This document shows positions 1,463-30,650 of a stretch of 32,000 nucleotides of DNA, piece by piece. The position numbers and the translations under genes were made by a program. A model generated the notes under the pieces. The model was not told the origin of the DNA. It saw only the letters and a program-made list of their open reading frames with translations, and did no database searches. The DNA comes from Haloferax volcanii DS2. GTDB lineage: Archaea; Halobacteriota; Halobacteria; Halobacteriales; Haloferacaceae. Position 1 is the first letter of the stretch. Each line of letters opens with the position of its first letter. The DNA lies in the NCBI RefSeq assembly GCF_000025685.1, contig NC_013966.1, positions 120,001 to 152,000 on the forward strand, in the 5' to 3' direction.

Positions 1463-2860
1463 CAGTACTTCACAAAGCCGTTTAGTTAGAAGGTCTGCTT
1501 GCAGAAGGTGTGTCTAAAACCCAGCAAGCAGACGATGAAATCCACGAGGACCAGCTCCTTAACTTCCTCGTCAACTCTCTTGACGAGGAAGTTGCTCTCT
1601 CACTCGCTGAAAACGCTGAACTCGATGCTGAAGACATCTACGAGGTCCTCGTCGGCGCCTGCGCCGACGGGACCTCGGTCTCAACGCTCTGTGAGAGAAG
1701 CGAAGATGCACCCCACGAAAACTCCGTTCTCTACCATCTCCGCACTAAATTCGATCTAGAAACGCTCGAACAGGTTGGCAACATGCTCCTCCAGAAAGAC
1801 GTTCTCGACGTCCTTCCCCAGCAGGTGGAGGTCTGCGCAGACCTCCACCTGCGGCCCTACTATGGTGACGAAGACGACACGGACGGCCTGTATCACTCAC
1901 AAGCGAAGCGTGGAACCACCGCGTTCCACGCCTACGCGACGCTGTACGCACGCGTGAAGAACAAACGCTACACGCTGGCGGTGCGCCGTCTCGAAGACGG
2001 CGACACCGCCAGCAGTGTCCTCGCAGAGTTCCTCGGTATTCTCGACGGCCTTGACCTCGGTGTCAAGGCCGTCTATCTTGACCGCGAATTCTACGACAGC
2101 AAGTGTTTGACGCTGCTTCAGGCGCACAACCACGCCTACGTCATGCCGATCGTCCGCTGGGGACAATCAATCAAGCAAGAACTCTCGGAAGGCTGGAGTC
2201 GCGTGATTCAGCACAGTCTGACGGCGAGACTCGACGGTCACAGCTGGACCGTCGAGTTCCCCGTCTACATTGACTGTACCTACCAGAACGGACGGTACGA
2301 CGAACATGGCGTGGCGCGTCACGGCTACGCCGCTGACGCGCCGTTCATCGACTCACCACGAGACGCTCGATACCACTACGCGAAACGCTTCGGTATCGAG
2401 GCGAGCTATCGACTCTCTGAACAAAGTATCGCGACGACCTCGACACAAAATCCGGTTGTACGGCTGCTGTACGTCGTGGTGAGCTTGCTGTTACAGAACG
2501 TGTGGCGGTATCTGCACTGGGAGTACGTGGCGACGCCCCGCCGAGGCGGGCGTCGCCTCTGGCAGTGGCCATTCAAGGAGTTCATCAACATGATCCGACG
2601 GGCAGCGTGGACGGCCCTCGCGACGCGTCGGGCCGTCCCCGCGAACCGGCCACCGGACGACCGGTTCCACCGGTAACTCCCGACCGGGCTAGCCAACGGT
2701 GGGAGTGGCGACGCTGTCGCGTCGGCGGCAGCCGCCGCCGACAGCGACGGCTCTCCGCCGATCCGTCCATGATTCTCTCGTCGAAACCGCCAGTCCAACC
2801 GCTCCGCCACAGAACTCAGGCTTCAGAAACAGCTAGCCGAGGATGCTTTGTGAGGTACTG
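1463..2860 (+). mobile_element. ISH-type insertion sequence, copy 1 (ISH3-family / IS4-superfamily, ISH51/ISH27-like; family name from memory)
   Basis: Imperfect terminal inverted repeats: cagtacttcacaaagc (1463-) and gctttgtgaggtactg (-2860). 1398 bp with a single transposase ORF. A near-identical second copy lies at 29250-30650. Confidence 0.85.
1510..2676 (+). CDS. DDE transposase of IS copy 1
   Basis: 388-aa ORF with a GTG start. It is nearly identical to the ORF at 29273..30466 (about 8 aa differences). The layout is typical of a haloarchaeal ISH transposase. Confidence 0.85.
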   Translation: MSKTQQADDEIHEDQLLNFLVNSLDEEVALSLAENAELDAEDIYEVLVGACADGTSVSTLCERSEDAPHENSVLYHLRTKFDLETLEQVGNMLLQKDVLDVLPQQVEVCADLHLRPYYGDEDDTDGLYHSQAKRGTTAFHAYATLYARVKNKRYTLAVRRLEDGDTASSVLAEFLGILDGLDLGVKAVYLDREFYDSKCLTLLQAHNHAYVMPIVRWGQSIKQELSEGWSRVIQHSLTARLDGHSWTVEFPVYIDCTYQNGRYDEHGVARHGYAADAPFIDSPRDARYHYAKRFGIEASYRLSEQSIATTSTQNPVVRLLYVVVSLLLQNVWRYLHWEYVATPRRGGRRLWQWPFKEFINMIRRAAWTALATRRAVPANRPPDDRFHR

Positions 2861-2882
2861 ATTCTAGTACAGCGATTCTTTC

Positions 2883-4166
2883 CTATTGTTCAAACGCCTC
2901 CTCCAACTTCTCATACATCCTCCTTCGCCGTGCCCTCCGTTCTTGTTCCCTCGACAAGTAATTCCGAAGCACAACCTCGGTCGACGAACTCCCCTGATCT
3001 TCAGCCACCCCTTCCAATCCCTCTAGAACCTCCCCAACAGCTTCCTGATACGCCGAGTACCAGAACCGTCGTCCCATCTTGGGCGTGGGCGTATCCCCGT
3101 CAACAACCACCTCAGCACGGTCAGCAAGTTGCTTGAATCGACGTCGAACCGTACTCACAGACACGTGGCCCGTCGACGACGACCGAGAGGGGAACAGATA
3201 CCCATTCCACGTCTCACGGTCAGAGAGAGCATCAATCCGATCAGCGACGACGTCAACCCCATACAGCAGCGTCACCTCTCCAGGGCCGTTCTTCCGCTCT
3301 CCATCATCGAACGACAGATGCGGGTCCTCAGCATCTAAGACCACCTGGTCGACGTGCAACGCGGCAACCTCGGAGGGTCGTAATCCCCAACTAGCAAGCG
3401 CAACCACGAGTAATTCCGCTTCAGGCGAGTCGACCTCACTGTAGATTCGACGGACCTGCGACGCCGATAACGCCTGTGGGTCTGGCTCGTTTGCTTCCCA
3501 GCCGAACTCTTCACCAGCTTCCGAGAGTGGATTGTACTTTGCGTACTTCCGGCGCTTCACGAAGGCATACCATGCCCTAGCGACGTGCAGGTACTCAAGT
3601 TTCGACCGGTCGGTCGATAGTACCTCGTCGAAGACGTCGAGGACAGCGAGACAACGCTCTATCTCTTGCGGTTGCTGGTCTAACTCAGACAGCGGTTCGA
3701 GCAACGCATCAGTCCCATGCAGCTCTCGATACGTTCGAACCCACTTCGCCAACCTCGTCCGATGGGTCTCGACGGTACTCTCTGCTCGTCCACCACGAGT
3801 CTCTATCGACGTGAGGTACGCGTCGAGTGCGTTCACCGTTGCCTCGTGGTCAACTTTCCACTCCCATTCGTCGGAATCCTCGTCTTCGAGGCCGACGACA
3901 TTGACGAAGAACTGTTTGGGCGTCAAATCGTGATGCTCGCGCAGTGCGTACGCGATGCCACTGTATCCGTGTTCGGTGAGCCAGTTGTACGTTGGAACGT
4001 CTCGATCCTCGTCGAACCCGTCACGATATCGCTTCGGTGCGATGTCTTGCCAGTAGACATCGACGAGTTCGTCGAGGTCCATACGCGACCAGTTGTAGCG
4101 ACGGCTACGCGTCTCTGGGTCCGTGGATTCGTCGTCTGGTTGCTGGCTGGTGGACTGCTTTGTCAT
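2883..4166 (-). CDS. Tyrosine recombinase / phage-type integrase
   Basis: 427 aa. The C-terminal catalytic region has WGLRPSE (Arg), GHVSVSTVRRRF (His-x-x-Arg), GRRFWYS and LRNYL (Tyr). It appears full length. The stop lies 22 bp from the IS copy 1 right end. Confidence 0.85.
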   Translation of the reverse strand: MTKQSTSQQPDDESTDPETRSRRYNWSRMDLDELVDVYWQDIAPKRYRDGFDEDRDVPTYNWLTEHGYSGIAYALREHHDLTPKQFFVNVVGLEDEDSDEWEWKVDHEATVNALDAYLTSIETRGGRAESTVETHRTRLAKWVRTYRELHGTDALLEPLSELDQQPQEIERCLAVLDVFDEVLSTDRSKLEYLHVARAWYAFVKRRKYAKYNPLSEAGEEFGWEANEPDPQALSASQVRRIYSEVDSPEAELLVVALASWGLRPSEVAALHVDQVVLDAEDPHLSFDDGERKNGPGEVTLLYGVDVVADRIDALSDRETWNGYLFPSRSSSTGHVSVSTVRRRFKQLADRAEVVVDGDTPTPKMGRRFWYSAYQEAVGEVLEGLEGVAEDQGSSSTEVVLRNYLSREQERRARRRRMYEKLEEAFEQ

Positions 4167-4757: not shown

Positions 4758-5963
4758 GTGACTACCTCGTCAACAACCCCAATGCCAGCAGAAGACAACT
4801 TCACCGTAACACCCTACGCCGTCAAAGGCGACATCAACTACGACCGGCTCCTCGACCGATTCGGAGCCGACCGACTCACTTCCGAACAGAAAACGCGGTT
4901 CCCCGACCCCAGCCACCCACTCGTCCGTCGAGACGTATTCTATGCCCAACGAGACGTAGACCCGTTCCTCGACGCCGCAAACGATGACAAACCCCATTCA
5001 ATCGTGACCGGACGTGGCCCCTCCGGGCCGATGCACATCGGCCACATCTTCCCCTTCTACTTTGCAAAGTATCTCCAAGAACAGACTGGCACACTCGTCT
5101 ACATACCATTCTCCGACGACGAGAAGTACTTCCTAAAGAACAAATCAATGGACGAAATCAGCGACTACACTCGCCAGAATCTCCGAGACCTCCTTGCCGT
5201 CGGCTTCGACCCTGACCGCACTCGCATCATCGTAGATACAGCAGATGCCGACGTGGTGTACCCACTTGCCACTGCCTTTGCAAAGGAAGTGACCCAATCA
5301 ACAGTAGATGCGACGTACGGAGAACCCGAGAATATCGGCCTGTCATTCTATCCTGCTGTCCAAGCAACCCATCTGCTCCTTCCACAACTTGTTGAAGGGC
5401 GTCACCCAACACTTGTTCCAATTGCAGTAGACCAAGACCCACACGTACGCGTCTGTCGTGACATTGCCGCGAAAAAACGGTACGACGTACGAAAGCCCGG
5501 GGCATTGCTTTCGAAATTCCTCCCGAGTCTCGAAGGGCCGGGAAAGATGAGTTCGTCTGACGACGCCCCGAGTATCCTCCTTTCGGACGACCGGGAAACG
5601 GTCACCGATAAAATCCGTACGTACGCGTTCTCAGGTGGACGGACGAGCATCGAAGAACATCGATCCAAAGGCGGGAATCCGGAGATTGATGTCCCCTTCC
5701 AATTGTTGTACTACTTCTTTGAGGAGAGCGACGAGAGGGTAGAACAACTCGCAGAGGAGTACCGTGAGGGATCTCTATTGAGTGGTGAACTCAAGGAATT
5801 CGCGGCAGAGCGTATCGCGGGTTTCCTTGAAGCTCATCAGGCGCGTCGGTCGGCACTCGGTTCGCTGGAGGAAGAATTGTCTGCATATCGACTGACTGAA
5901 ACCGAGCGGCAGGCTGCACGGAGACAGGCAGGGTATCCTGATAATGCACTGTCGCAACAGTAG
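4758..5963 (+). CDS. trpS: Tryptophanyl-tRNA synthetase (archaeal/eukaryotic type), extra copy in accessory DNA
   Basis: Class I signatures GPMHIGH (HIGH) and GKMSSS (KMSKS). The N-terminal VTPYAVKGDINYDRLLDRFGA and the stretch RRDVFYAQRDVD...TGRGPSGPMHIGH..PF...YLQ....LVYIPFSDDEKY align by eye with eukaryotic/archaeal TrpRS. GTG start at 4758; an alternative ATG lies at 4782. Confidence 0.85.
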   Translation: MTTSSTTPMPAEDNFTVTPYAVKGDINYDRLLDRFGADRLTSEQKTRFPDPSHPLVRRDVFYAQRDVDPFLDAANDDKPHSIVTGRGPSGPMHIGHIFPFYFAKYLQEQTGTLVYIPFSDDEKYFLKNKSMDEISDYTRQNLRDLLAVGFDPDRTRIIVDTADADVVYPLATAFAKEVTQSTVDATYGEPENIGLSFYPAVQATHLLLPQLVEGRHPTLVPIAVDQDPHVRVCRDIAAKKRYDVRKPGALLSKFLPSLEGPGKMSSSDDAPSILLSDDRETVTDKIRTYAFSGGRTSIEEHRSKGGNPEIDVPFQLLYYFFEESDERVEQLAEEYREGSLLSGELKEFAAERIAGFLEAHQARRSALGSLEEELSAYRLTETERQAARRQAGYPDNALSQQ

Positions 5964-6250
5964 GCGTCTCAATCGCCGCTTTGTCCCTGATTCGGCGTTA
6001 ATTAGACAGGGCTGTTCTTCCGCATAATCAGCCGAACAAATTGACCGACTTGCGCTCTGTATTCACCTATGGAAATTCTGCTGGCTCAACTAACCACCGC
6101 TAGCGATAAAGTTGTTCGCACGATTCCGTGTCTCTCGTTCTTCAACGGTGAAAAACCACTGGGCAACGTGGTGATTGAGACCTCCACAACCGATAGGCGG
6201 TCGGTACGAGTTCCGCGATAGCTGTCGCTCACGCTGGTTCCATCCGGCCA

Positions 6251-6279
6251 CTGAGGAACGCCGGACTGGCGTTCCTCAG
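6251..6279. repeat. Perfect hairpin (12-bp stem, 5-nt loop) just downstream of the IS110 transposase stop
   Basis: ctgaggaacgcc ggact ggcgttcctcag. Confidence 0.6.
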
Positions 6280-6289
6280 ATTCCCTTCC

Positions 6290-7288
6290 TCAGGCGCTCA
6301 CCCCCGGTGGATCGTAGACTTCCTCCCGGACGAGCATGTAGTACATCGAGACGAGCAGTTTTCGCGCCGTCGCAACGATTGCTTTTTTCGGGTTCATCCG
6401 ACGGTTCAACCGGTGGAAGAACCGGCTCAGATACTCGTCTTTACACGTGTACACTGCTGAGTATGCACTCTGAACCAAAATCCACCGCACCCGTCCTGAA
6501 CCACGTTTCGAGATACCACCCTCGATCCGCGAGTCGCCGGACTCGCGGATCGTCGGGTTCAGCCCCATGTAACTCACGACCTCCTTGTGGCTGTCGAACC
6601 GATCAACTTCTCCAAGTTCTGCGTAGATCAGCAACGCGGAGTAGTAACTGACTCCAGGAATCGTCATGAGCAGCTGGGTCTCCTTCAGAGACCCAGCGCG
6701 CTCCTCAATCGCAGCTTCCAGCTGTGTCATCTGCTCGGTCAGGGTCTCAACCACGTCAAGGTACGACTCCAACAACGCGTCCCACGGGGACGGGAGCGAG
6801 AGTTCCCGGAGGAACTCTCGTCCCTTCACGCTCAGTGGCTTCACCTCGCGGGTGATACCGTTGTCAGCGAGCAAGCCATGGATCTTGTTGGCGAACTTGG
6901 TGCGATCTTCGACCAATGTCTGTCGCCCGCGCACGAGTGCGCGGGCTTGCCTGATCTCGTCGGTGGGAACGTAACTCTGCGGAACGGAGTTGAGTCGAAG
7001 CAACCGCGCGAGTTCTTTGGCGTCGACGCGGTCGGTTTTCTTGTCGGAGTGAGCGATGAGCGTCAGTTTACCTGGATGAGCGACGGTTACGTCCAAGTAC
7101 TCCGCGAGCGTATCGTAGACGTGGTAGTAATTGCTGGTCGCCTCGATGACCGCACGAGAGCCAGCGTAGCGTCGAGCGAGATCGTCGAGGTTCGCGTTTT
7201 TGACGCGAACCTCTTCGACAATCTGGCCTTCGCTGTCGATTACTGCTACCTGTGCGTACCGTTTGTGTAAGTCGATTCCGAGGTACAT
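6290..7288 (-). CDS. IS110-family (DEDD) transposase
   Basis: 332 aa. The N-terminus MYLGIDLHKRYAQVAVID and the C-terminal LMTIPGVSYYSALLIYAELGEVDRF (helix-hairpin-helix-like) are classic IS110/IS116/IS902 features. Confidence 0.9.
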   Translation of the reverse strand: MYLGIDLHKRYAQVAVIDSEGQIVEEVRVKNANLDDLARRYAGSRAVIEATSNYYHVYDTLAEYLDVTVAHPGKLTLIAHSDKKTDRVDAKELARLLRLNSVPQSYVPTDEIRQARALVRGRQTLVEDRTKFANKIHGLLADNGITREVKPLSVKGREFLRELSLPSPWDALLESYLDVVETLTEQMTQLEAAIEERAGSLKETQLLMTIPGVSYYSALLIYAELGEVDRFDSHKEVVSYMGLNPTIRESGDSRIEGGISKRGSGRVRWILVQSAYSAVYTCKDEYLSRFFHRLNRRMNPKKAIVATARKLLVSMYYMLVREEVYDPPGVSA

Positions 7289-7349
7289 TGCTTGTTCCTC
7301 CGGGATAGGACGGCGGTGCGTGAATCAGAACTTCACCTATGCGGGCTTT

Positions 7350-7378
7350 CCCGGATGCCGCCAGGAGCGGCATCCGGG
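7350..7378. repeat. Perfect hairpin (12-bp stem, 5-nt loop) in the IS110 transposase upstream region
   Basis: cccggatgccgc cagga gcggcatccggg. Confidence 0.6.
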
Positions 7379-7678
7379 CTGTGACGCCCATAACTCGGCT
7401 TCTTTCGCACTCGGACCAGTCAGCACCACGTGCTCTGGGGCACGGAATACAGCTCGGTCTCTTGCGTCCCATGCTTGATTCACGCTCCGCAGGGATAGCA
7501 GAATTTCCATCAAGTCAGCACGGCCGCAGCAACCTCACTGAGTACTGTCAGAAGCGACGTGCAACAGACAGAGAACTTCTCTTTATCATTATATTGGGAT
7601 TGCCACCAGAGCAGTTTGTCATGACACGGATGGCTGGTCACAACAAATATATTCGTAGAGCGATTATCTCCGGTTACC

Positions 7679-18057: not shown

Positions 18058-18068
18058 AGCGGGGCGAA

Positions 18069-18416: not shown

Positions 18417-18436
18417 GTCACACGGACTGTGTCTTC

Positions 18437-18468
18437 AGCCCGCACCCATCTCGGGCGCAAAAAATCAC
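18437..18468 (-). promoter_or_regulatory. T-run plus GC-hairpin motif, copy 4
   Basis: Minus strand: gtgattttttgcgcccgagatgggtgcgggct. It lies 20 nt upstream of the GTG at 18416. Confidence 0.55.
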
Positions 18469-18505
18469 GACGGCGCGCTAGTACCGACGGGACTCTCGAC
18501 CGAGG

Positions 18506-19323: not shown

Positions 19324-20767
19324 CCATGCGTTCTAGTTTAGCAGAGAATGCGGTCGCTGTTTGTTGATTAGATATCGTCGCAACTACCCGGTTGAAGAAC
19401 CCGGTGGATGATGTGTACTCACCACCGGACTCGGTAGTTGTTGACCGGATTCAAAGAGCGTTTCCCTCCGATGAGTTGCGCGAGCGCGCTCGCGCAACGA
19501 ATCTCATCGAGCGTGAGCGCAAGTTCGACATCGTTGCGCTGTTTTACACACTCACGTTTGGCTTCGCTGCTGGCTCAGACCGCTCTTTGCAGGCGTTTCT
19601 CGACCGCTACGTCGAGATGGCTGACTGCGATGAGCTCTCCTACGCGGCGTTTCACGACTGGTTCGAACCGGGGTTCGTTGCACTCCTCCGAGAGATTCTC
19701 GATGACGCCATCGAGAATCTCGATACCGGACGAACCGACTTGAACGGACGTCTCGAACGATTTCGAGACGTCCTCATTGCCGACGCGACCATCGTTTCGA
19801 TGTACCAGGACGCCGCTGATGTCTACGCAGCAACTGGCAAGGATCAAGCTGAACTGAAGCTCCACCTCACAGAGTCACTCTCGACGGGCCTTCCAACGCG
19901 ATTCCGCACAACCGACGGAACAACTCACGAACGGAGTCAGCTACCCACCGGTGAGTGGGTAGCTGACGCCCTCATCTTGCTTGATTTAGGCTTCTACGAC
20001 TTCTGGTTGTTCGACCGAATCGACCAGAACGGCGGGTGGTTCGTCTCCCGGGTGAAGGACAACGCGAACTTCGAGATCGTCGAAGAACTGCGAACGTGGC
20101 GAGGCAACAGCATTCCGCTGGAAGGAGAGTCGCTGCAGGCCGTCCTTGAGGACCTGCAGCGACAGGAAATCGACGTCCGCATCACGCTTTCATTCGAGCG
20201 CAAACGAGGGTCGGGCGCCAGCGCGACCCGGTCGTTCCGATTGGTCGGCCTGCGTAACAAGGAGAGCGAAGAGTACCATCTGTATCTGACGAATCTGGCG
20301 AGAGAGGACTACAGCGCGCCCGATATCGCGCAGCTCTATCGGGCGCGCTGGGAGGTCGAACTGCTGTTCAAGGAGCTGAAGTCGCGGTTCGGCTTGGACG
20401 AGATCAAGACGACCGACGGCTACATCATCGAGGCGCTGATCATCATGGCCGCAATTTCGTTGATGATGAGTCGTGTAATCGTGGATGAGTTACGGTCGCT
20501 CGAGGCAAGACAGCGAGAGGGCGAAGCCGCCGCAGACGCCGACTCGTCGGCGTCGCGGCTCCCTCGGCGTCGCTGTTCGCTCGCCGTGGAACGCCACGGT
20601 CATCTGATCCAGTTGTATCTCATGATCGAGTTGGGCTACGAACTGCCGGATTTGGACGAGCTGTTGCTGTGGGCGTCACGAAATCCAAATCCACACAGAG
20701 ATCGGTTACGTGAGCAGGTTGAACGAGGTGAGTTCGGCTTTGATCGCTACTAAACTAGAACGCATGG
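19324..20767 (+). mobile_element. IS4-family insertion sequence (1444 bp)
   Basis: Perfect 18-bp terminal inverted repeats: ccatgcgttctagtttag (19324-19341) and ctaaactagaacgcatgg (20750-20767). One transposase ORF. No flanking direct repeat is visible (..gtcgggg / aactacg..). Confidence 0.85.
19392..20753 (+). CDS. IS4-family DDE transposase
   Basis: 453 aa. VLIADATIV (Asp1), LLDLGFYDF (Asp2) and YRARWEVELLFKELKS (the Y-x2-R-x3-E-x6-K signature of IS4). TTG start. Confidence 0.9.
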   Translation: MKNPVDDVYSPPDSVVVDRIQRAFPSDELRERARATNLIERERKFDIVALFYTLTFGFAAGSDRSLQAFLDRYVEMADCDELSYAAFHDWFEPGFVALLREILDDAIENLDTGRTDLNGRLERFRDVLIADATIVSMYQDAADVYAATGKDQAELKLHLTESLSTGLPTRFRTTDGTTHERSQLPTGEWVADALILLDLGFYDFWLFDRIDQNGGWFVSRVKDNANFEIVEELRTWRGNSIPLEGESLQAVLEDLQRQEIDVRITLSFERKRGSGASATRSFRLVGLRNKESEEYHLYLTNLAREDYSAPDIAQLYRARWEVELLFKELKSRFGLDEIKTTDGYIIEALIIMAAISLMMSRVIVDELRSLEARQREGEAAADADSSASRLPRRRCSLAVERHGHLIQLYLMIELGYELPDLDELLLWASRNPNPHRDRLREQVERGEFGFDRY

Positions 20768-20877
20768 AACTACGACCACTTGGCGAATCGACCCACGTTC
20801 CCGACGACGAGTTTTCCGGAAGGGGGGACGCTGGACGAGCAGAGCGAAAGGAAGGGTTCGGATCGTATCCTGATCGA

Positions 20878-21114
20878 ATGAGATCGATGCGGAGCGAATG
20901 TTCCTCGTGCTGTGCGTCGATTCCTGCGTACCGTACCAAGTGTCGGTTCTGCCTCTCAAATCATCTGGATGGGACCAGCGACGATAGTCGCACTCCGAAT
21001 ACAGAGGGGACGCGACTCCACGTCGTCCATCTGCTCGTCGAAACGTCGGCGACGTCGAAGCCGTCGCGTCGGGCCGTTTCAGTCGTCTTCGTCGGCTGTC
21101 GTCTCGGTCTCTAG
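20878..21114 (+). CDS. Small zinc-ribbon protein, possibly a remnant
   Basis: MRSMRSECSSCCASIPAYRTKCRFCLSNHL carries a CxxC...CxxC ribbon. The longer ORF-track version (20710-) starts inside the IS4 element. The 3' end overlaps the convergent ABC ATPase gene by 36 nt. Confidence 0.25.
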   Translation: MRSMRSECSSCCASIPAYRTKCRFCLSNHLDGTSDDSRTPNTEGTRLHVVHLLVETSATSKPSRRAVSVVFVGCRLGL

Positions 21115-22257
21115 GTCGGCTGAAACGGGGGACAGACCGTGGGCGAGTGCCTCGCCCGACGCCGTCTCAAAGAGGTGGACGTTCCCCCGGTCTATCACGA
21201 CTTCGACGTCCGTGTCTTCTCGAATCGTCGAGTCGGGGTCAACACTCATCAGCAGCTGGTCATCGGCTCTCGACTGGTCCATCGATGTACGGCGTTCGCC
21301 CAACAACATGTACGCGAATATCTCGTCGCCCATCGGTTCGAGAATATCGACACGCGTGGAGATGAGCGAAGAGGGGTCTTCCACTTCGACGCGCGTTCCG
21401 CCGGGATAGATATCTTCGGGACGAATCCCGACAGTCACCTCGTCGCCCACGTCCACAGCCTCGACAGACGCCGGATCGAACGCGAGCGAAAAGTACGCCG
21501 TCGAAAGCGAGTTTTCTGTGACCGTCGCCTCGGCGAAGTTCATCGACGGCGAGCCGATGAAGCCCGCGACGAACAGGTTCGCCGGCTCGTTGTAACAGAC
21601 GAGCGGCGGGTCGATCTGCTGGAGTTGTCCGGAGTCGAGGACGGCGATACGGTCCGAAAGCGTCATCGCTTCCTCTTGGTCGTGGGTGACGTAGATGATG
21701 GTCGTGTCCAGTTCCTTGTGCAGGCGTTGGAGTTCGGTCCGCATGTGGACCTTGAGCTTCGCGTCGAGGTTCGCCAGCGGCTCGTCCATGAGAAATACAT
21801 CGGGCTCACGGACGATGGCGCGGGCGATGGCGACGCGCTGTCGCTGCCCGCCGGACATCTCGTCGGGCATGCGTTCGAGCATGCCCTGCAACTGGACGAT
21901 TTCGGCGGCGCGCTCGACGCGGCGCTCGATTTCCTCCTTGGCGTAGTTGCGGAGGCGAAGCCCGAAAGAGATGTTGTCGTACACGTCCATGTGGGGAAAC
22001 AGCGCGATGTTCTGGAACACCATCGCCACCCCACGGTCCTTCGGTGGGAGGTTCGTTACCTTGCGGTCGCCGATGTGGATTTCGCCCTCACTCGGCTTCG
22101 TAAGTCCAGCGATGCTTTCCATCGTCGTCGACTTCCCACAACCCGACGGGCCGACAAAGCAGATGAATTCGCCGTGGTCGATGTCGAGGTTCATGTCATC
22201 TACCGCCGTTACGTCGTCGTAGTGCTTGCTTACGTGTTCGAGTCGTAGTCGTGCCAT
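21079..22257 (-). CDS. Sugar ABC transporter ATP-binding protein (MalK/UgpC-like)
   Basis: Walker A GPSGCGKST, signature LSGGQRQRVAIARA, Walker B VFLMDEPLANLD, plus a C-terminal MalK-type regulatory domain and an acidic tail. Confidence 0.9.
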   Translation of the reverse strand: MARLRLEHVSKHYDDVTAVDDMNLDIDHGEFICFVGPSGCGKSTTMESIAGLTKPSEGEIHIGDRKVTNLPPKDRGVAMVFQNIALFPHMDVYDNISFGLRLRNYAKEEIERRVERAAEIVQLQGMLERMPDEMSGGQRQRVAIARAIVREPDVFLMDEPLANLDAKLKVHMRTELQRLHKELDTTIIYVTHDQEEAMTLSDRIAVLDSGQLQQIDPPLVCYNEPANLFVAGFIGSPSMNFAEATVTENSLSTAYFSLAFDPASVEAVDVGDEVTVGIRPEDIYPGGTRVEVEDPSSLISTRVDILEPMGDEIFAYMLLGERRTSMDQSRADDQLLMSVDPDSTIREDTDVEVVIDRGNVHLFETASGEALAHGLSPVSADLETETTADEDD

Positions 22258-22259
22258 TG

Positions 22260-23258
22260 TTATTCTTTAAGTGCTCCTGCGGTTAGTCCGCTGACGATGC
22301 GTTCCTGTGCGATGATGACGAGGACGACGACCGGGATGACCCCGACAACACTCGCTGCGGCCATGAGGTTGTACTGCGTCGTGTACTGGGTCTGGTAGCT
22401 GAGAATCCCGCCGACGATTGGCGACCACTTGGACGCTTCGGGCGAAGTCGCCATAATCGAGCTGAAAAAGTACTCGTTGTAGACGCTGATGAACGTGAGG
22501 ACGCCCGCGGTCGCCACGCCGGGTGCTGAAAGCGGCACGATGACGCGGAATAGCGCGCCCAGTCGGGTCGTTCCCTCCACCCGCGCCGCGTCCTCCAACC
22601 CGTCGGGAATTTGCCCGTAGAAGGTCGTGAGGATAAATATCGACAGCGGCAGGAACAGCGCGCTGAACGGCATGACCATCGACCCCGGGGTGTTCAGCAG
22701 TCGGGGCGGTGTGAATAGCGGGACGCCTATGAAGGGAATCGTTATCGGAGCGTTACCGGCGAACGCCTGAAACAGCGGGATAACGAACGCCGCGGGCGGG
22801 AAGTAACTGATGGCGAGGATACCGAGCATCAACAGCGCGCGCCCGGGGAACTCGATTCGTCCGAACACGTAGCCTGCGAGGCTCGCGACGATGAGGACGA
22901 TAACTGTCGTCGTGGTGGCTAGCACGAAGCTATTCAGCACGTACAGGTGGAACGGGACCTGCTCGAAGACGGTAACGAACGCTGTCGGATTGAATCCCTT
23001 CGGAACGGGGAGCGGAAACGTACCGCTGACGCCGAACAGCTCGACAGTTGGGAGGAAACTCCCGGAAAGAAGATTCTCTTGTGGTGTCACCGCGAGGACG
23101 AGTAACCAGTAGAACGGGAACACTGTCGTGACCATGAAAAACGCCATCGCGACGTAGAACAACGCTCGGTACACGCGTCGTGGGTTGTGGATCGCATTCC
23201 GCGCCCACCGTGCGAGCGGCCCGGTGTCGTCTGACGTATCCTCGGTTTCGCTGGACAT
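22260..23258 (-). CDS. Sugar ABC transporter permease (MalG/UgpE-like)
   Basis: I prefer the ATG at 23258 (MSSETEDTSDD...FPFYWLLVLAV), which overlaps the upstream stop (TAATG). The EAA-loop-like DAARVEGTTRLGALFRVIVPL is present. The 517-aa ORF-track version runs out of frame through the neighbouring permease. Confidence 0.85.
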   Translation of the reverse strand: MSSETEDTSDDTGPLARWARNAIHNPRRVYRALFYVAMAFFMVTTVFPFYWLLVLAVTPQENLLSGSFLPTVELFGVSGTFPLPVPKGFNPTAFVTVFEQVPFHLYVLNSFVLATTTTVIVLIVASLAGYVFGRIEFPGRALLMLGILAISYFPPAAFVIPLFQAFAGNAPITIPFIGVPLFTPPRLLNTPGSMVMPFSALFLPLSIFILTTFYGQIPDGLEDAARVEGTTRLGALFRVIVPLSAPGVATAGVLTFISVYNEYFFSSIMATSPEASKWSPIVGGILSYQTQYTTQYNLMAAASVVGVIPVVVLVIIAQERIVSGLTAGALKE

Positions 23259-24250
23259 TATATCGCGTCCTCCCCCTGCCACAGGATGATTCCCATCACG
23301 ACGACGCCGATGATGGCCGCTGTCACGAACGCGATGGCGGCCGACGTCCCCTCGTGCGTGTTGAACGTCGAGACGACCATACAGGAGAGCGAGGGGACTA
23401 CGGTGCAGCTCGAGACAGTATCGATGATACCGTACACGCGCATCGCCTGCACCGAGCGGAATAACACCGCAACCCCGATGGTCGGCAGGATGAGCGGGAG
23501 CGTGATGTATCTGAACTGCTGCCACTTGCTCGCACCGGCGACGCGGGCCACGTCGTACAGGCTGCGATTGATGCTCTGGAGTCCGGCAAGGATGAGTAGT
23601 GCCATGAACGCGGAGGTCTTCCAGATGTCGGCGACGATAATGATGAACGTCGCGCTGACCGTGTCGTTCAGTGTGTTGGTCGGCGCCACTACCCCGAGGT
23701 CGGCGAGCATCGGCGTCGCGAACCCGACGCTCGAGTCGAACATTAAGAAGAACATCATCCCCTGGATGACGATTGGGACGGCCCACGGAATGATAATCGC
23801 CGCACGGACCCACCGTCGGCCGTAGAAGTCTTGATCTAAGACGAGCGCTTGCCCCAGTCCGATGAGGGTCTCGAACAATACGCTGGCCACGGCGAAGATG
23901 AGGGTGATTACGAGGGCGCTATCGAGGAGACTCGCGGCGTCGAACCCGGTCGGGAGGAACGTCGTCCCGCCGGGGAGGAACCGATTTTTCTCCCCGGTGA
24001 ACAGCGCGACGTAGTTGTCGAGACCAACGAAACGGACACTAGAGAGGTCGGTCGAGACGGCGTACAGTGACAGCTCGAACGTCCGCAAGAGCGGGTAGAT
24101 AGCCACGATACCGAGCAGGACGAATACCGGGGTCAACAGCAGGTACGCGTACTGCGTGTCGCTCAGGTTCTCCAGCCACCGCAAGAAGCCGACGACTGGT
24201 CCCGCCCGTCGTGACTCACGTGCCGGTTCTGCAGCCGTATCGGCGCTCAT
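23258..24250 (-). CDS. Sugar ABC transporter permease (MalF/UgpA-like)
   Basis: 330 aa and multi-TM, with the EAA-like loop YDVARVAGASKWQQFRYITLPLILP. Confidence 0.85.
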   Translation of the reverse strand: MSADTAAEPARESRRAGPVVGFLRWLENLSDTQYAYLLLTPVFVLLGIVAIYPLLRTFELSLYAVSTDLSSVRFVGLDNYVALFTGEKNRFLPGGTTFLPTGFDAASLLDSALVITLIFAVASVLFETLIGLGQALVLDQDFYGRRWVRAAIIIPWAVPIVIQGMMFFLMFDSSVGFATPMLADLGVVAPTNTLNDTVSATFIIIVADIWKTSAFMALLILAGLQSINRSLYDVARVAGASKWQQFRYITLPLILPTIGVAVLFRSVQAMRVYGIIDTVSSCTVVPSLSCMVVSTFNTHEGTSAAIAFVTAAIIGVVVMGIILWQGEDAI

Positions 24251-24313
24251 ACTATCCCTCCGAGAGGTGTGGGACTCATGGTTTGATCTGGTAAGTGTGG
24301 AGCTCTCCGCTCG

Positions 24314-25801
24314 TCAGTTGCTTCTCTCAGTCTCTTCGAGGCTGGACTGGAGCGTTGCCATCGCCTCGGACGAAGCCACCTCTTGTCCGACCGCGCGATT
24401 GGCCTGCTCCGCGATCTTGCTCGATTGGTTGTTCCAGACCGACGTAACTGGTCGAGCCATCGTGTTCTCACCGGCGACGCGGAGCGTGTCCATGTAGTCG
24501 CCGGCCGGTTCGAGCCCCGCAGCCGTCTCGGAGTTAAACAGGCTCGCCCGCGGAGGTAGCCACCCCTCGATCTCCAGAAGGAACAGCTGGAACTCCTCGC
24601 GCATCGACGCTTGGATGACCTGTGTGACAGCGTCGAGCTTCTGGCTGTTCGGGTTGACAGTGATGTGCCAGCCACCGAGTGCGGAGGTGGACCCACCGGT
24701 TCCGGGGAACTGCGCCTCGCTTTCAGGGACACCGTAGGGAAGCGGCATCGTCCCGAGGTCGTCACCGAACTCCGACGCTGCTTGGTTAATCGCGTACGGC
24801 CAGTTTCGGTGGAACACGGCGTTCCCGTCGACGAACGGTGCGAGCGAACTGTCTTCGATCCACCCGAGGATGTTCGTCGGTGTGAAGCCGCCGCCGTAGT
24901 CGCTGAATTGCCCGTCGAAGCTCTCGTCGTGGACGAATTTTCGCATCATATTCAACGAGTTGACTACCGGGTCCGAATCGACGGTGACGGGGCGTTCGCC
25001 GACGGGGCCGAAGAGGTTCTCCCGGCCACCGAAGTAGGCACCGCCCCACGAAGACAGCACCTCGTTGAAGGTACAACAGGCGGTGCCGACGTAGATATCC
25101 CACTGGGTGGTAAAGCCGTAATCGACGCCCGAGACCTCCTGTGCCTCGGCGGCGATGTTCGACCACCGCTTCCACGTCATCGGTTCGGTGGCCCAGTTCT
25201 CCTCAGTCGGATTGTAACCCGCCTCTTCGACGAGGTCTTTCCGGTACAACATCGTCGGGTAGTCGGGGTACAGCGGAACACCGAACAGGTCCCCGCTGGC
25301 GGGGTCGATGGCCGTCTCGGTGAATCCGCCGAAGTACTCGTTTTCGATGGTTGAAAGCGCGCTCTCGGGGAGGACCTCCGAGAGGTTAGCGAGCTGTCCC
25401 CGCTGGATGAAGATGTTCACCCAGCCGTTGTCCATCATGAACATATCCGGCGTCGTCTCTTGAGAGCTCAAGAGCCGGTTGTACGTCGCCCGACGCTTCC
25501 CGCTGTCCGGCTGGCCCGGCTGAAACTCGACGCGGATGTCGTCCGACAGCCCTCCTTTCTCGTGTAGCGCCGTGCGGAGCTGGTCCGCGTGGTCCTGTGC
25601 GACAGTCGCGTCAAAGCCCCAGACGACGGTTGTTCCGCCGCTTTCGGACTCACCGACCTGTGCACCGGTGTCGGAGCCGTTGCCAAACATACTCGCACAG
25701 CCGGAGAGGCCCGCTGTGGCCCCCGTCGCACCAGCAGCGGTGATAAACCGCCGTCGTGAGACGCTCTTCGTCGTCTTGCTCGTCTCTGGGTTCGTTGTCA
25801 T
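24314..25801 (-). CDS. ABC transporter substrate-binding lipoprotein (Tat signal plus lipobox)
   Basis: SRRRFITAAGATGATAGLSGC combines a twin-arginine signal with a lipobox Cys. At 495 aa it has the size and composition of a family-1 extracellular solute-binding protein. Confidence 0.85.
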   Translation of the reverse strand: MTTNPETSKTTKSVSRRRFITAAGATGATAGLSGCASMFGNGSDTGAQVGESESGGTTVVWGFDATVAQDHADQLRTALHEKGGLSDDIRVEFQPGQPDSGKRRATYNRLLSSQETTPDMFMMDNGWVNIFIQRGQLANLSEVLPESALSTIENEYFGGFTETAIDPASGDLFGVPLYPDYPTMLYRKDLVEEAGYNPTEENWATEPMTWKRWSNIAAEAQEVSGVDYGFTTQWDIYVGTACCTFNEVLSSWGGAYFGGRENLFGPVGERPVTVDSDPVVNSLNMMRKFVHDESFDGQFSDYGGGFTPTNILGWIEDSSLAPFVDGNAVFHRNWPYAINQAASEFGDDLGTMPLPYGVPESEAQFPGTGGSTSALGGWHITVNPNSQKLDAVTQVIQASMREEFQLFLLEIEGWLPPRASLFNSETAAGLEPAGDYMDTLRVAGENTMARPVTSVWNNQSSKIAEQANRAVGQEVASSEAMATLQSSLEETERSN

Positions 25802-25851
25802 CGTCCGAATTGTTCATCAAAATAGGGCCACTTATACTTTAGGGATTAGCT

Positions 25852-25865
25852 TTGTGATATCACAA
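25852..25865. promoter_or_regulatory. Perfect 14-bp palindrome in the divergent promoter (candidate TrmB-family operator)
   Basis: ttgtgatatcacaa lies between the binding-protein gene (start 25801, minus strand) and the glucoamylase gene (start 25899, plus strand). It is flanked by TATA-like cttatacttta (25831-25841) and aactttatct (25867-25876). Confidence 0.5.
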
Positions 25866-25898
25866 GAACTTTATCTGAACTCTGTGGCCAGTAGGTGT

Positions 25899-27908
25899 AT
25901 GGGACTCCGACGGTCACTCGACGATTACAAGCAGAACGAAGACGCGACCGACGTATTTCCGGGCGAACGGCGCACGCGGCGAGGCAGATTCAGCGGGTCG
26001 GACCAACGCCTCGTTCACGTTTCACCAGCCGGGTCGCTCCGAGACTACTCGTACCCACTTTCGGGATTCGGCGGCATCGTGTCCTCACGCTTCGGCGTCC
26101 GTGTCGGCGACGCCGTCGAGTGGTTCGATGCGCTCGACACAGGGAGCCAGACGTACCGAGCGGGTCGCTCGCTCGTCGAGACGACGCACCGTCTCGACGG
26201 ATTCGACGTGGTACAACGCGACGTTACTGACGGCCTCGCCCACACGACGGCGTTTGAGCTTGGCGACGGTGCACCCGAAGATATCGAACTGGCCGGGTTC
26301 GTCGAGATCAGCCCGGAGGGGCGAGATGGGCGCGTTGGGCAGCTCGTCCACGACGACGCCGTCGAGGTGTATCACAACCGAGAGCACGACTATCTCGGCA
26401 CCTCGACTGAGTTCGTGGAGTGTACGCCCCAAGTACTCGAGCGGTTCGACGAGATACTCGCCGCGGAATCGCGGTCGTTTCCGGAGTTCGGTGCGTCCGA
26501 AGAGTACGAGGAGAGTCGCCTCACCGGCGGTGTTGGAGTCCGCGTCGCTTTCGAGGATGGTGAGGCCAGTCTCGTCACCCTGCTGTCGGACATCGAAACG
26601 CAGTCGCGCTCGGATGCGCTCTCTGCGGTCGCGACCCGGACGCGACGACCCAACAGCGATTCAGCCTCGCTCCTCGCGACGGCCCGGCAGGCCGGACAGT
26701 ACCCCACGGTCACGGATCGGCTCGTCGCGACTGACCTTTCGGTCCTTGAGTTACTCTCCGCACCGACTGGGGCCCGAATTGCGGGGCCGGATTTCGACCC
26801 GTTCTACCAGTACTCCGGCGGCTATGGTTACACGTGGTTTCGAGACGACGGAGAAGTTTCGACGTTTCTCTTGGAAGCCGACGAATCACTCGGGTTCGAC
26901 GCAGCCGAGGCACACCGACAGAGCGCCGAGTTCTACTTGCGGACGCAGTTACCTGACGGCCGGTGGCCCCACCGAGTATGGCCGATGAACGGCCGGCTCG
27001 CGCCGGGTTGGGCGAACGGCCACATCGAGGGCACGGAAACGCAGTATCAAGCCGACCAGACTGCGAGCGTCCTCGTTTTCCTCGCCGAGTACCTCTCGGC
27101 ACACCGACAGTCGCTCCGAAACGTCACCGTCGAGGCCATCGAGAGCGCATTACAGTCGGGAGTCGATGGGCTCGACAGCTCGCTGGAAGACGATTGCTTT
27201 CCGACGGTATGCGAAAACGCGTGGGAGAATACGAATGGCCGTTTCACGCACACCGCCGCGAAGTTCGTTCAGGCCTACAGTACGATTGCGGCCGTCACGT
27301 GCGATGCAACTACCAGAGAGCGTGCAGCTACGCGGGCAACGCAGGTCTTCGACGCACTCGATATGGCGTGGGTCCCCGACGAGGGTATCTACGCGCTCCG
27401 ATTAGACGACGGGGACGGTGACTTGGACGACCGAGTCGACAGCACTACCTTCTCACTCGTCGACGCCTATCTCGCCTATCGGGACATCGAGGACATCGGC
27501 GACACGCGATTGCGGCGGCTCGAACGCCATCTCCACACCGCGTTCTCCAGGCTCTGGAAAGAGACCGACGACATCTCCGGACTCACGCGATTCGAGGACG
27601 ATACGTGGCGGCGGCGGGGGCAGGGAAGCGAGAAGGTTTGGACCGTCTCGACTGGCTGGGGTGCGTACGCGGCCGAGAAGTCGATTCGACTCTTCTCGTC
27701 GACCGACGAATACGACCCCGAGAAGTGGGCGGACCGGTTGTTCGACGAGATTGACCTTGATGGCAGTCTGTGCCTTCCATCGGGGTATCTCCCAGAGCAG
27801 TTCTTCGACACCGGCGCGCCGGACAGCGCGACGCCGTTGGGTTGGTCCCACGCTATTCGATTAGCCACGCACGCGTCCCGTGTCACCCGAGGTACTTGCA
27901 CCGAGTAG
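25899..27908 (+). CDS. Glycoside hydrolase family 15 (glucoamylase / glucodextranase-like)
   Basis: I prefer the ATG at 25899 (MGLRRSLDDY...); the ORF-track start at 25536 is antisense to the binding-protein gene. GYGYTWFRDDGEV (the WxRD motif), CENAWEN (acid/base Glu region) and LPEQFF...PLGWSHA (C-terminal catalytic region) are GH15-like. 669 aa. Confidence 0.85.
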   Translation: MGLRRSLDDYKQNEDATDVFPGERRTRRGRFSGSDQRLVHVSPAGSLRDYSYPLSGFGGIVSSRFGVRVGDAVEWFDALDTGSQTYRAGRSLVETTHRLDGFDVVQRDVTDGLAHTTAFELGDGAPEDIELAGFVEISPEGRDGRVGQLVHDDAVEVYHNREHDYLGTSTEFVECTPQVLERFDEILAAESRSFPEFGASEEYEESRLTGGVGVRVAFEDGEASLVTLLSDIETQSRSDALSAVATRTRRPNSDSASLLATARQAGQYPTVTDRLVATDLSVLELLSAPTGARIAGPDFDPFYQYSGGYGYTWFRDDGEVSTFLLEADESLGFDAAEAHRQSAEFYLRTQLPDGRWPHRVWPMNGRLAPGWANGHIEGTETQYQADQTASVLVFLAEYLSAHRQSLRNVTVEAIESALQSGVDGLDSSLEDDCFPTVCENAWENTNGRFTHTAAKFVQAYSTIAAVTCDATTRERAATRATQVFDALDMAWVPDEGIYALRLDDGDGDLDDRVDSTTFSLVDAYLAYRDIEDIGDTRLRRLERHLHTAFSRLWKETDDISGLTRFEDDTWRRRGQGSEKVWTVSTGWGAYAAEKSIRLFSSTDEYDPEKWADRLFDEIDLDGSLCLPSGYLPEQFFDTGAPDSATPLGWSHAIRLATHASRVTRGTCTE

Positions 27909-28001
27909 GGTTGTTACATTCAAACAGCGGAGTCCGAGGCGGTCATGCGTCGGACAACTCCCTACCTGTACTCTCATCTTTACTAAGATTTATCCCCCGC
28001 G

Positions 28002-29084
28002 TTGGCCGAACACTTGGGTATGGTTGAAGACGAGGTGGTGGACAGCCTCATGAGAATTGGGCTCTCGGACAAGGAGTCGCGAGCATACGTGACGATACTC
28101 CGTAACGGGGCGACGACAATCCGAGTCGTCTCTGAAGAGGCTGACATCTCTAAGAGTTACGCGTACGATATCGTCGGAAAACTCGAAGAGCGCAACCTCA
28201 TCGAAATCGACGATCACGTCCAACCGACGCAGTTGCGAGCGATTCCGCCCGCAGAGGGCATTGACAACCTCGTGTCCCAACTACAGACCGTCGAGTCCCA
28301 GTTAGAGGATCTGTTTGACTCCGAGAGCTACGAACAGCAGAAGTTCAGTATCATCAAATCTCGACGGACGATACTCGCTCAGCTCAACAAGCTGATCGAC
28401 GCCGCTGAATCGGAACTCGTTCTCGCACTTCCCGCATCGGTGCTTCCTCGGGTCGAAGACTCGCTCAGAGAGGCGCGGAGTCGGGGAGTATTTTGTATGC
28501 TTCTCGTCACGGAGTATGACGGCACGAGTTCGATCGACGATGCGACCGCGAGTATCATTCAGACGTGGAGCGCCCCGGCACCGGTGACGCTTACTGTTGA
28601 CCGGAGTGACGGTATCATCGCCTCGGCAGATGCGATACTGAATTCGAACTCCGATGAATATGCCATCTACCACGCTGAGGAGCACATCGTCTCTTCGTTG
28701 TTCGACTCGTTTATCGCGAACTACTGGCCGATGGGCGAGCAGGTGCATGTCGGGTCAAAAAGTCAACTGCCGGCGACGTTCACGAGTTTCCGCCACGCGG
28801 TGTTCGATGCGACGCTACATCTGATGGACGGAGCTGTCGTCACGGCCGAGATGGATATCCGTCCCACCCAGAGTAACGCGGCGTTCGAGACGACGACTGG
28901 GACGATCGTGGCGGTGAAACAGAGCCTCGTTCGGCCCTTCTCGAACGACTTCCCGACCCAGGAGTCGTTCGTCGTTGAGACACCTGACGACACGTTTACC
29001 GTCGGCGGCTCGAAGGCGTTTTTGGAGGATTTCGAGGCCCGGCGCGTCGTCTTTCGTTCGGTCAGCGACGCAAAACAGGGCTAG
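28002..29084 (+). CDS. TrmB-family sugar-sensing transcriptional regulator
   Basis: The N-terminal wHTH LMRIGLSDKESRAYVTILRNGATTIRVVSEEADISKSYAYDIVGKLEERNLIE is followed by a coiled-coil and a C-terminal TrmB-type sensing domain. TTG at 28002; the likelier start is the ATG at 28020. Confidence 0.8.
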   Translation: MAEHLGMVEDEVVDSLMRIGLSDKESRAYVTILRNGATTIRVVSEEADISKSYAYDIVGKLEERNLIEIDDHVQPTQLRAIPPAEGIDNLVSQLQTVESQLEDLFDSESYEQQKFSIIKSRRTILAQLNKLIDAAESELVLALPASVLPRVEDSLREARSRGVFCMLLVTEYDGTSSIDDATASIIQTWSAPAPVTLTVDRSDGIIASADAILNSNSDEYAIYHAEEHIVSSLFDSFIANYWPMGEQVHVGSKSQLPATFTSFRHAVFDATLHLMDGAVVTAEMDIRPTQSNAAFETTTGTIVAVKQSLVRPFSNDFPTQESFVVETPDDTFTVGGSKAFLEDFEARRVVFRSVSDAKQG

Positions 29085-29249
29085 ATTCCTGCTCTTTCTC
29101 ACCGACTAGTCGGAATGGACGGCCCCGCGTGGGACTCCTCTACGTTCCTCTCGGTTGGGTTGACCCGACCGCCTTCGATGTCACTCGATTAGCGGAACGT
29201 CCATTTTGTTCATCCGCGAACGGGGTGCGGACACGTTGATAATCAAACT

Positions 29250-30650
29250 CAGTACATCACAAAGCCTGTTAGTTGAGACGTCTGCTTGCTGAAGATGTGT
29301 CCAAGCAACCACAGCAAGCAGACGATGAAATCCACGAGGACCAGCTCCTTAACTTCCTCGTCAACTCTCTTGACGAGGAAGTTGCTCTCTCACTCGCTGA
29401 AAACGCTGAACTCGATGCTGAAGACATCTACGAGGTCCTCGTCGGCGCCTGCGCCGACGGGACCTCGGTCTCAACGCTCTGTGAGAGAAGCGAAGATGCA
29501 CCACACGAAAATTCGGTTCTCTACCATCTCCGCACCAAATTTGACCTTGAGACGCTCGAACAGGTTGGAAACACGCTCCTCCAGAAGGACATTCTCAACG
29601 TCCTTCCCCAGCAGGTGGAGGTCTGCGCAGACCTCCACCTGCGGCCCTACTACGGCGACGAAGACGATACAGACGGCCTGTATCACTCACAAGCGAAGCG
29701 TGGAACCACCGCGTTCCACGCGTACGCGACACTGTACGCACGCGTGAAGAACAAACGCTACACGCTGGCGGTGCGCCGTCTCGAAGACGGCGACACCGCC
29801 AGCAGTGTCCTCGCAGAGTTCCTCGGTATTCTCGACGGCCTTGACCTCGGTGTCAAGGCCGTCTATCTTGACCGCGAATTCTACGACAGCAAGTGTTTGA
29901 CGCTGCTTCAGGCGCACAACCACGCGTACGTCATGCCGATCGTCCGCTGGGGACGGACGATCAAGCGAGAACTCTCAGAAGGATGGAGTCGCGTGATTCA
30001 GCACAGTCTGACAGCGAAACTCGACGGTCACAGCTGGACCGTCGAGTTTCCCGTCTACATCGACTGTACCTACCAAAACGGACGGTACGACGAACATGGG
30101 GTGGCGCGTCACGGCTACGCCGCTGACGCGCCGTTCATCGACTCACCACGGGACGCTCGATACCACTACGCGAAACGCTTCGGTATCGAGGCAAGCTATC
30201 GACTCTCCGAGCAAAGTATCGCGACGACCTCGACACAAAATCCGGTCGTACGGCTGCTGTACGTCGTGGTGAGCTTGCTGTTACAGAACGTGTGGCGGTA
30301 TCTGCACTGGGAGTACGTGGCGACGCCCCGCCGAGGCGGGCGTCGCCTCTGGCAGTGGCCATTCAAGGAGTTCATCAACATGATCCGACGGGCAGCGTGG
30401 ACGGCCCTCGCGACGCGTCGGGCCGTCCCCGCGAACCGGCCACCGGACGACCGGTTCCACCGGTAACTCCCGACCGGGCTAGCCAACGGTGGGAGTGGCG
30501 ACGCTGTCGCGTCGGCGGCAGCCGCCGCCGACAGCGACAGCTCTCCGTCCGTTCGCCCAAGATTCTCTCGTCGAGACCGCCAGTGCAACCGCTCGGTCAC
30601 AGAACTCAGGCTTCAGAAACAGCTAGCCGAGGACGCTTTGTGAAGTACTG
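29250..30650 (+). mobile_element. ISH-type insertion sequence, copy 2 (same type and orientation as 1463-2860)
   Basis: Termini cagtacatcacaaagc and gctttgtgaagtactg. 1401 bp. It differs from copy 1 by scattered substitutions and a 3-bp length difference near the left end. Confidence 0.85.
29273..30466 (+). CDS. DDE transposase of IS copy 2
   Basis: 397-aa ORF from the TTG at 29273. The GTG at 29297 corresponds to the copy 1 start. About 8 aa substitutions relative to copy 1. Confidence 0.85.
   Translation: MRRLLAEDVSKQPQQADDEIHEDQLLNFLVNSLDEEVALSLAENAELDAEDIYEVLVGACADGTSVSTLCERSEDAPHENSVLYHLRTKFDLETLEQVGNTLLQKDILNVLPQQVEVCADLHLRPYYGDEDDTDGLYHSQAKRGTTAFHAYATLYARVKNKRYTLAVRRLEDGDTASSVLAEFLGILDGLDLGVKAVYLDREFYDSKCLTLLQAHNHAYVMPIVRWGRTIKRELSEGWSRVIQHSLTAKLDGHSWTVEFPVYIDCTYQNGRYDEHGVARHGYAADAPFIDSPRDARYHYAKRFGIEASYRLSEQSIATTSTQNPVVRLLYVVVSLLLQNVWRYLHWEYVATPRRGGRRLWQWPFKEFINMIRRAAWTALATRRAVPANRPPDDRFHR

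Follow-up and report, generated by a model that had tools for sequence, protein, structure and literature searches.

Two copies of one insertion sequence (IS) that enclose a block of mixed genes may have moved together, or may have come to lie there by separate routes. This question is raised by plasmid pHV4 of Haloferax volcanii DS2, where two copies of the element ISH51 lie in the same orientation around a mosaic cargo. The window analysed here is the whole 32,000-nucleotide stretch pHV4:120,001-152,000; coordinates are in window numbering unless a replicon is given (C1, chromosome; C2, pHV1; C4, pHV3; C5, pHV4). An earlier reading of the letters alone, below called the original prediction, had proposed that the whole 29.2-kb unit moved as a composite transposon with a 4-bp target duplication, or else that it arose by recombination between the two ISs. 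Our analysis indicates that the two copies are probably independent ISH51 insertions whose flanks were later made hybrid by recombination, rather than the two ends of one mobile composite unit.

The repeated element is ISH51, a member of the ISH3 family. The DS2 genome paper gives this name to an abundant 1.4-kb element, of which it counts 22 copies on pHV4 (PMC2841640; original source Hofman, Schalkwyk and Doolittle 1986, as cited there). The transposase matches the NCBIfam model for ISH3-family transposases, NF033541, with 385 bits (cutoff 225), while a Pfam scan of it gave zero matches. In the genome we found 36 full-length copies as well as fragments, all ending in CAGTAC..GTACTG. The two copies in the window agree with ISH51 in their length of about 1.4 kb, their 16-nucleotide terminal inverted repeats, their single DDE transposase matching NF033541 and their membership of a set of dozens of diverged copies concentrated on pHV4. 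There is no difference of substance; the two are annotated copies, each of them lacking a target duplication of its own.

Both copies are found on the plus strand around a 26-kb cargo, as had been predicted (Table 1). In both, the terminal inverted repeats read CAGTAC[T/A]TCACAAAGC ... GCTTTGTGA[G/A]GTACTG, and the outer repeats, at the left of copy 1 and the right of copy 2, match each other as reverse complements without a mismatch in 16 nucleotides. To call the copies near-identical was generous, as their DNA is 95.4% identical with a 3-bp indel near the left end, and they represent different sequence subtypes of ISH51 (1398 bp versus 1401 bp). The estimate of about eight differences between the transposases was fair: 377 of the 386 aligned residues are identical and nine differ. 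Both transposase open reading frames (ORFs) are open, with predicted products of 388 amino acids each.

Inspection of the flanks also bears out that neither copy has a direct repeat on its own two sides. Copy 1 lies between ..cgccaatat and attctagta.., copy 2 between ..aatcaaact and atatttgaag.., and the sequence atat does occur directly outside both outer ends, at 1459-1462 and 30651-30654. For the ISH3 family, ISfinder gives a target duplication of 4-5 bp. The length for ISH51 itself was measured from the flanks of all 36 full-length copies. Of these, 20 lie between perfect direct repeats of 5 bp (AGACT, AGTCT, AGGAT, ATAAT, ATATT, AGATT, ATACT and others), while a repeat of 4 bp only is found at none of the 36. 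The 4-bp duplication that had been proposed is thus contradicted by all 20 intact cases. The flanking bases are strongly conserved, with A at -5 in 35 of 36 copies, T at -1 in 36, A at +1 in 35 and T at +5 in 33. This register is kept in every copy, including the 16 whose two sides do not match, namely copies 1 and 2 and 14 others. The target of ISH51 is a 5-bp A-N-N-N-T, and every flank is a recognisable half-site.

The original prediction had warned that 'at' could be part of the element, a perceptive caveat in view of the nearly invariant bases at -1 and +1. If the element is parsed as T-CAGTAC..GTACTG-A with a 3-bp duplication, this cannot be distinguished from the 5-bp reading in most copies. 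However, one copy departs from the rule and has GTGTT on both sides, with -5 and +1 changing together, and this covariation therefore favours a true 5-bp duplication over a 3-bp duplication next to a T and an A owned by the element. The 3-bp parse would in any case give the outer cores ATA and TAT, which are mismatched too.

Read in the 5-bp register, copy 1 has AATAT to its left and ATTCT to its right, while copy 2 has AAACT and ATATT. The outer 5-mers, AATAT and ATATT, agree at two of five positions, and the atat match lies one base off register. Between unrelated ISH51 copies, a 4-nucleotide match of suffix and prefix occurs in 4 of 1260 pairings (0.3%), close to the chance of about 1 in 256 conceded in the original prediction, and a 5-nucleotide match occurs in 5.4% of pairings because the target is so strongly constrained. 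The outer atat is a coincidence of two AT-rich half-sites.

An empty site was found in relatives for each of the four junctions, numbered here from left to right, and the flanks belong to four separate contexts: an interrupted gene for a pyrroloquinoline quinone (PQQ) beta-propeller protein, an integrase locus, a sugar-utilisation cluster, and a locus with universal stress protein (USP) and acetate-utilisation genes. The empty site of junction 1, ..aatcgccAATATagacg.., is present in a paralog at C5:417324 in the same genome and in H. gibbonsii pHG1 and pHGLR1, and the uninterrupted reading ..aatcgccAATATagacgactcc.. is found in these three and in two more Haloferax genomes (G002, G004). The PQQ gene is intact in pHG1 and pHGLR1, where the left flank runs on as ..AATATagacg.. 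within the gene, and homology to the window ends exactly at 1462. Within the genome the missing N-terminal part was found only at the C5:417324 paralog, and it does not lie to the right of copy 2. For junction 2 the empty site ..ctctaactaATTCTagtacagcg.. occurs in H. alexandrinus pBNX82-1; the match begins exactly at window position 2861, and helicase and nuclease genes lie on the far side. Junction 3 has its empty site, ..gatagtcAAACTccttcgtgagg.., in H. alexandrinus pBNX82-3, where the match spans 20767 to 29250 and then continues as ..gtcAAACTccttcgtgagg.. into BtpA/SgcQ and kinase genes. The empty site of junction 4, ..gaaatagttATATTtgaagag.., is found in H. lucentense pSVX82-2 and H. alexandrinus pBNX82-2. 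In these plasmids the right flank is preceded by ..tagttATATT.. with a major facilitator superfamily (MFS) transporter gene on the far side, and the locus is followed by an acetate--CoA ligase gene. In H. alexandrinus the blocks are thus spread over three different plasmids.

Copy 1 accordingly joins the PQQ gene (AATAT) to the integrase locus (ATTCT), while copy 2 joins the sugar cluster (AAACT) to the USP/acetate locus (ATATT). As in a hybrid IS, each flank is an in-register half-site that continues into a different locus in the relatives. Of the neighbours that the empty sites would lead one to expect, the helicase, BtpA and MFS genes are missing from DS2, and none of the expected continuations lies beside any ISH51 end in its genome. 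Reciprocal partners of the four half-sites were found neither among all 36 copies nor in a fuzzy search for the expected neighbours. Movement as one unit predicts an empty site in which ..aatcgccaatat is joined directly to ttgaagagttg.. (or atatttgaag..). A query of the joined outer flanks against the genomes of 20 other Haloferax species gave no contiguous match; matches to the left flank end at the junction, and those to the right flank lie on other contigs.

With 36 copies of the repeat in the genome, hybrid flanks could come from faulty assembly. Junction 1 is, however, present in a Logan contig of SRR11888955, junction 2 in eight independent Logan runs, and junctions 3 and 4 in the independent NCBI draft GCA_018419995.1, junction 3 with 100% identity. 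In this draft the sugar cluster forms its own 8.8-kb contig, which ends in IS sequence. All four junctions being present in independent data, the hybrid flanks are therefore not an assembly artefact. For AATAT and AAACT, moreover, no other combination of the flanks found in this genome would restore a duplication.

The structure is most simply, and most probably, explained by four ordinary ISH51 insertions: at AATAT in the PQQ gene, at ATTCT beside the integrase gene, at AAACT beside trmB and at ATATT beside the USP locus, each of which would have generated its own 5-bp duplication. Homologous recombination between directly oriented pairs of copies, on one replicon or in transient plasmid fusions, would then have removed the intervening DNA and left one hybrid IS at each seam. 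The order of these events is inferred, as is recombination rather than transposase-mediated deletion as their cause. A single event would not suffice; at least two are required, and the atat match has no role in them.

The relationships among the ISH51 copies are consistent with such a history. The closest relative of copy 1 is C1:2334983-2336380 (99.1%) and that of copy 2 is C1:1648273-1649673 (98.2%), while their similarity to each other ranks only 20th and 24th of 35. In 200-nucleotide windows the ISH51 copy to which each is identical changes from segment to segment; copy 1 follows C1:2336380 to about position 600, then C5:426200 as far as 1000, and at its right end a third group, to give one example. 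Copies 1 and 2 do not form a sister pair, and each is a mosaic of sequence from other copies. This segment-wise identity to different copies shows that sequence exchange within the ISH51 family has been extensive. Recombination between ISH51 copies has also left its mark elsewhere in the genome. Two inverted pairs have exactly reciprocal half-sites: C1:1648273-1649673 (ATATT/ATACT) with C1:1704636-1706036 (ATACT/ATATT), and C2:3196-4596 (ATTCT/ATACT) with C2:15144-16544 (ATACT/ATTCT). They imply that IS-IS recombination has inverted about 55 kb of the chromosome and about 10.5 kb of pHV1. Reciprocal half-sites are further seen across replicons, at C4:169900-171300 on pHV3 (ATTCT/AGTCT) and C5:452645-454043 on pHV4 (AGTCT/ATTCT); these could reflect an exchange between the replicons, or chance, given the 5.4% rate of 5-mer matching.

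The explanation first suggested by the arrangement is that both ISH51 copies and the 26.4-kb cargo moved as a unit by way of the outer ends, with atat as a 4-bp duplication. The common orientation, the intact transposase ORFs, the perfect outer inverted repeats and a real 4-nucleotide match of a kind rare in random pairings all speak for it. Yet the element duplicates 5 bp, over which the outer flanks mostly differ, the relatives lead from the left flank further into the PQQ gene and from the right flank into an MFS-transporter locus, the missing half of the PQQ gene does not lie beyond copy 2, and the outer flanks are contiguous in no relative. The IS-cargo-IS unit was found in no other record either, and the best plasmid record covers 24% of the first 25 kb; we consider such a move barely credible. 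Recombination between ISs, the second proposal, was right in general but fails as a single crossover. A circle with one ISH51 and the cargo that integrated into a resident ISH51 would yield two direct copies, each without its own repeat, as is seen here, and the plasmid-like genes in the cargo would suit such an origin. It would also give one 5-bp repeat outside and another inside, whereas the pairs seen are AATAT/ATATT and ATTCT/AAACT. Moreover, the outer flanks come from unrelated loci and a further IS without a duplication divides the cargo, so a single crossover is very improbable. Composite insertion and single crossover both predict an outer repeat and contiguous outer flanks; neither is found, and both explanations therefore fail. 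An even slighter chance, close to none, is given to the idea that each copy is a simple insertion whose 5-bp repeat was lost by point mutation. Some ISH51 copies without a duplication do differ at only one or two of the five positions (e.g., AGACT/AGACC). The pairs AATAT/ATTCT and AAACT/ATATT, however, each differ at three of five, although the adjacent DNA is 87-98% identical to that of relatives. No relative has the sequences to the left and right of either copy next to one another, and the empty sites contradict such decay.

The main alternative, which we regard as unlikely, is that the transposase itself made the seams: intramolecular transposition of each copy would have deleted or inverted adjacent DNA, leaving one old flank and one new flank without a duplication. 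This would account for the hybrid flanks and the loss of neighbours without a second IS at each seam, ATTCT and ATATT, which would be the new flanks, agree with the target consensus, and in a preprint on laboratory evolution a deletion is reported of which one breakpoint lies in an ISH51-family transposase gene. Against it, copies 1 and 2 keep the A-N-N-N-T register on either side, as four insertions followed by recombination would leave them, and the ISH51 family displays clear recombination products (the reciprocal inversions) and pervasive mosaicism. Independent insertion followed by recombination has its own difficulties. The outer 4-nucleotide match is rare a priori (0.3%). The short-read contigs span no whole IS, so it is the finished DS2 assembly that links the left to the right flank of each copy. 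Mosaicism, through gene conversion, is found across the ISH51 family and fits a hybrid origin without being specific to it. In the relatives, ISH51 was found at none of the four sites, so the parental arrangements are unseen and the history is a reconstruction; within the genome no parental copies or reciprocal products were found, and these would have been lost by deletion.

Table 1. Features of the window pHV4:120,001-152,000, in order of position.
Feature	Position	Strand	Evidence or remark
PQQ beta-propeller gene, C-terminal remnant, cut mid-ORF by copy 1	702..1462	-	Pfam PQQ_2, E 2.6e-38
AATAT, left half of 5-bp target duplication behind the left end of copy 1	1458..1462	+	empty site; A at -5, T at -1 in register
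ISH51 copy 1, ISH3 family, 1398 bp	1463..2860	+	transposase ORF 1510-2676; NCBIfam NF033541
ATTCT, right half of another 5-bp target duplication	2861..2865	+	empty site in H. alexandrinus pBNX82-1
Tyrosine recombinase (halo-type integrase)	2883..4166	-	Pfam Phage_integrase
Tryptophan--tRNA ligase paralog, plasmid-borne	4758..5963	+	NCBIfam NF008927, 584 bits
Complete IS110-family element	6055..7522	-	Pfam DEDD_Tnp_IS110, Transposase_20; NF033542; 99.9% identical to C5:16857-18324
Plasmid-backbone block: TFB, SWIM, HD hydrolase, ArdC/IrrE-like, small ORF, DUF7567	14123..18901	-	Pfam
Complete IS4-type element, without target duplication	19324..20767	+	NF033592, 277 bits; ends CCATGCGTTCTAGTTTAG..
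Sugar-utilisation cluster: ABC ATPase, two permeases, binding protein, GH15 glucoamylase-like, TrmB regulator	20768..29249	.	Pfam
AAACT, left half of third 5-bp target duplication	29245..29249	+	empty site in pBNX82-3
ISH51 copy 2, 1401 bp	29250..30650	+	transposase ORF 29273/29300-30466
ATATT, right half of fourth 5-bp target duplication	30651..30655	+	empty sites in pSVX82-2, pBNX82-2
Right-flank locus: DUF8119 small protein, universal stress protein, start of sodium/solute symporter	30656..32000	-	relatives' annotation, Pfam

The cargo is the mosaic that had been described, with an integrase, plasmid-like genes and a sugar cluster, and it also holds two complete ISs (IS110-type and IS4-type) and an IS5 fragment. 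Pieces of it sit on separate plasmids in relatives. The integrase locus displays 87.5% DNA identity to integrase loci of several Haloferax plasmids, and the plasmid-backbone block is also found on plasmids of H. gibbonsii, H. alexandrinus and H. lucentense. Window positions 14809-19026 are paralogous to C5:105150-109474, which lies 30 kb upstream in the same orientation and is 90-92% identical; two such backbone blocks suggest that pHV4 merges more than one plasmid backbone. The sugar cluster is 98.1% identical to that of H. alexandrinus pBNX82-3, where no IS flanks it. At its left edge the homology to H. alexandrinus begins exactly at the right end of the IS4-type element. This element has about 14 copies in the genome; other copies have duplications of about 8-9 bp, while the one here has none and lies between ..tgtcgggg and aactacga... 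It is a third seam, forming the left edge of the sugar cluster. The three seams mapped in pHV4, at copy 1, the IS4-type element and copy 2, connect blocks which the sister species H. alexandrinus carries on three or four separate plasmids, and they therefore support the view of pHV4 as a patchwork built by recombination at IS copies.

Compared with the bacterial compound transposons Tn5, Tn9 and Tn10, the arrangement is similar in having two copies of one IS around a cargo, with intact transposase genes and outer ends. It differs from them in that no duplication of IS-specific length surrounds the unit, its outer flanks belong to unrelated loci, there is no second copy of the unit, and other ISs interrupt the cargo. 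In structure it is like a compound transposon, without the footprint of movement as one. It might still be a latent one, with the ISH51 transposase able to move the sugar cluster and the backbone genes together, because its outer ends match perfectly as reverse complements and the transposase gene of each copy is open. We find this very doubtful; if true, it would be a rare documented compound transposon of an archaeon.

A closer parallel is the rearrangement of haloarchaeal replicons by ISs. IS-linked instability and plasmid rearrangements have long been described in Halobacterium salinarum. The locus shares with such cases the dispersed IS as portable homology, the copies with hybrid flanks at block seams, and inversions with reciprocal flanks in the same genome. 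The difference is only that three seams are here described at the nucleotide level, the mechanism being known. For H. volcanii, a deletion in pHV4 has been suggested to be the work of IS elements (PMC2841640). The element ISH51, its high copy number on pHV4 and the IS-linked rearrangement of haloarchaeal replicons were all known before, and the finding is ordinary IS biology whose significance is small beyond correct annotation. The 5-bp A-N-N-N-T rule derived from 36 copies does provide a simple criterion for other ISH51 pairs in the genome. For strain engineers it is further relevant that homologous recombination between the two direct copies could remove 27.8 kb, including the sugar-uptake and glucoamylase cluster.

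Some further features of the flanks and the cargo were observed. At junction 4, a megablast match to the relatives starting from window position 30632 gave the appearance of an IS end at the same site; this was discarded as no more than a likeness of the relatives' sequence to the last 19 nucleotides of the IS. Immediately before the ATATT target, the sequence in the relatives is gacacttttgaaatagtt, which resembles the last 19 nucleotides of ISH51 (gacgctttgtgaagtactg), and the megablast alignment extends into the IS. The likeness may be due to chance, or it may point to a preference for insertion beside end-like sequence. On the other side of the unit, the 4.9-kb segment that ends exactly at 1462 (window -3413..1462, C5:116587-121462) is an inverted duplicate, 98.7% identical, of C5:417324-422197. 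The duplication resumes with 95.6% identity past an inserted IS (C5:113009-114233 versus C5:422201-423425). The duplicate beside the window is nearer to H. gibbonsii pHGLR1 and the other copy nearer to genome G002, and the two may have been derived from two related plasmids.

Within the cargo, the tryptophan--tRNA ligase paralog adjoins the integrase gene, and similar genes are found on megaplasmids of several haloarchaea. A stretch of low G+C content (42-50%) contains small repeats and the IS5 fragment. The repeats include a 125-bp direct pair at 9223-9347 and 9837-9961 (94% identical) and inverted repeats of about 120 nucleotides at 10472-10592 and 12034-12155 (74%), which surround a 1.4-kb segment with an ORF on the minus strand (10759-11637) for a glycine-zipper protein with a twin-arginine translocation (Tat) signal. 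These low-GC repeats look like elements of the miniature inverted-repeat transposable element (MITE) kind or IS remnants.

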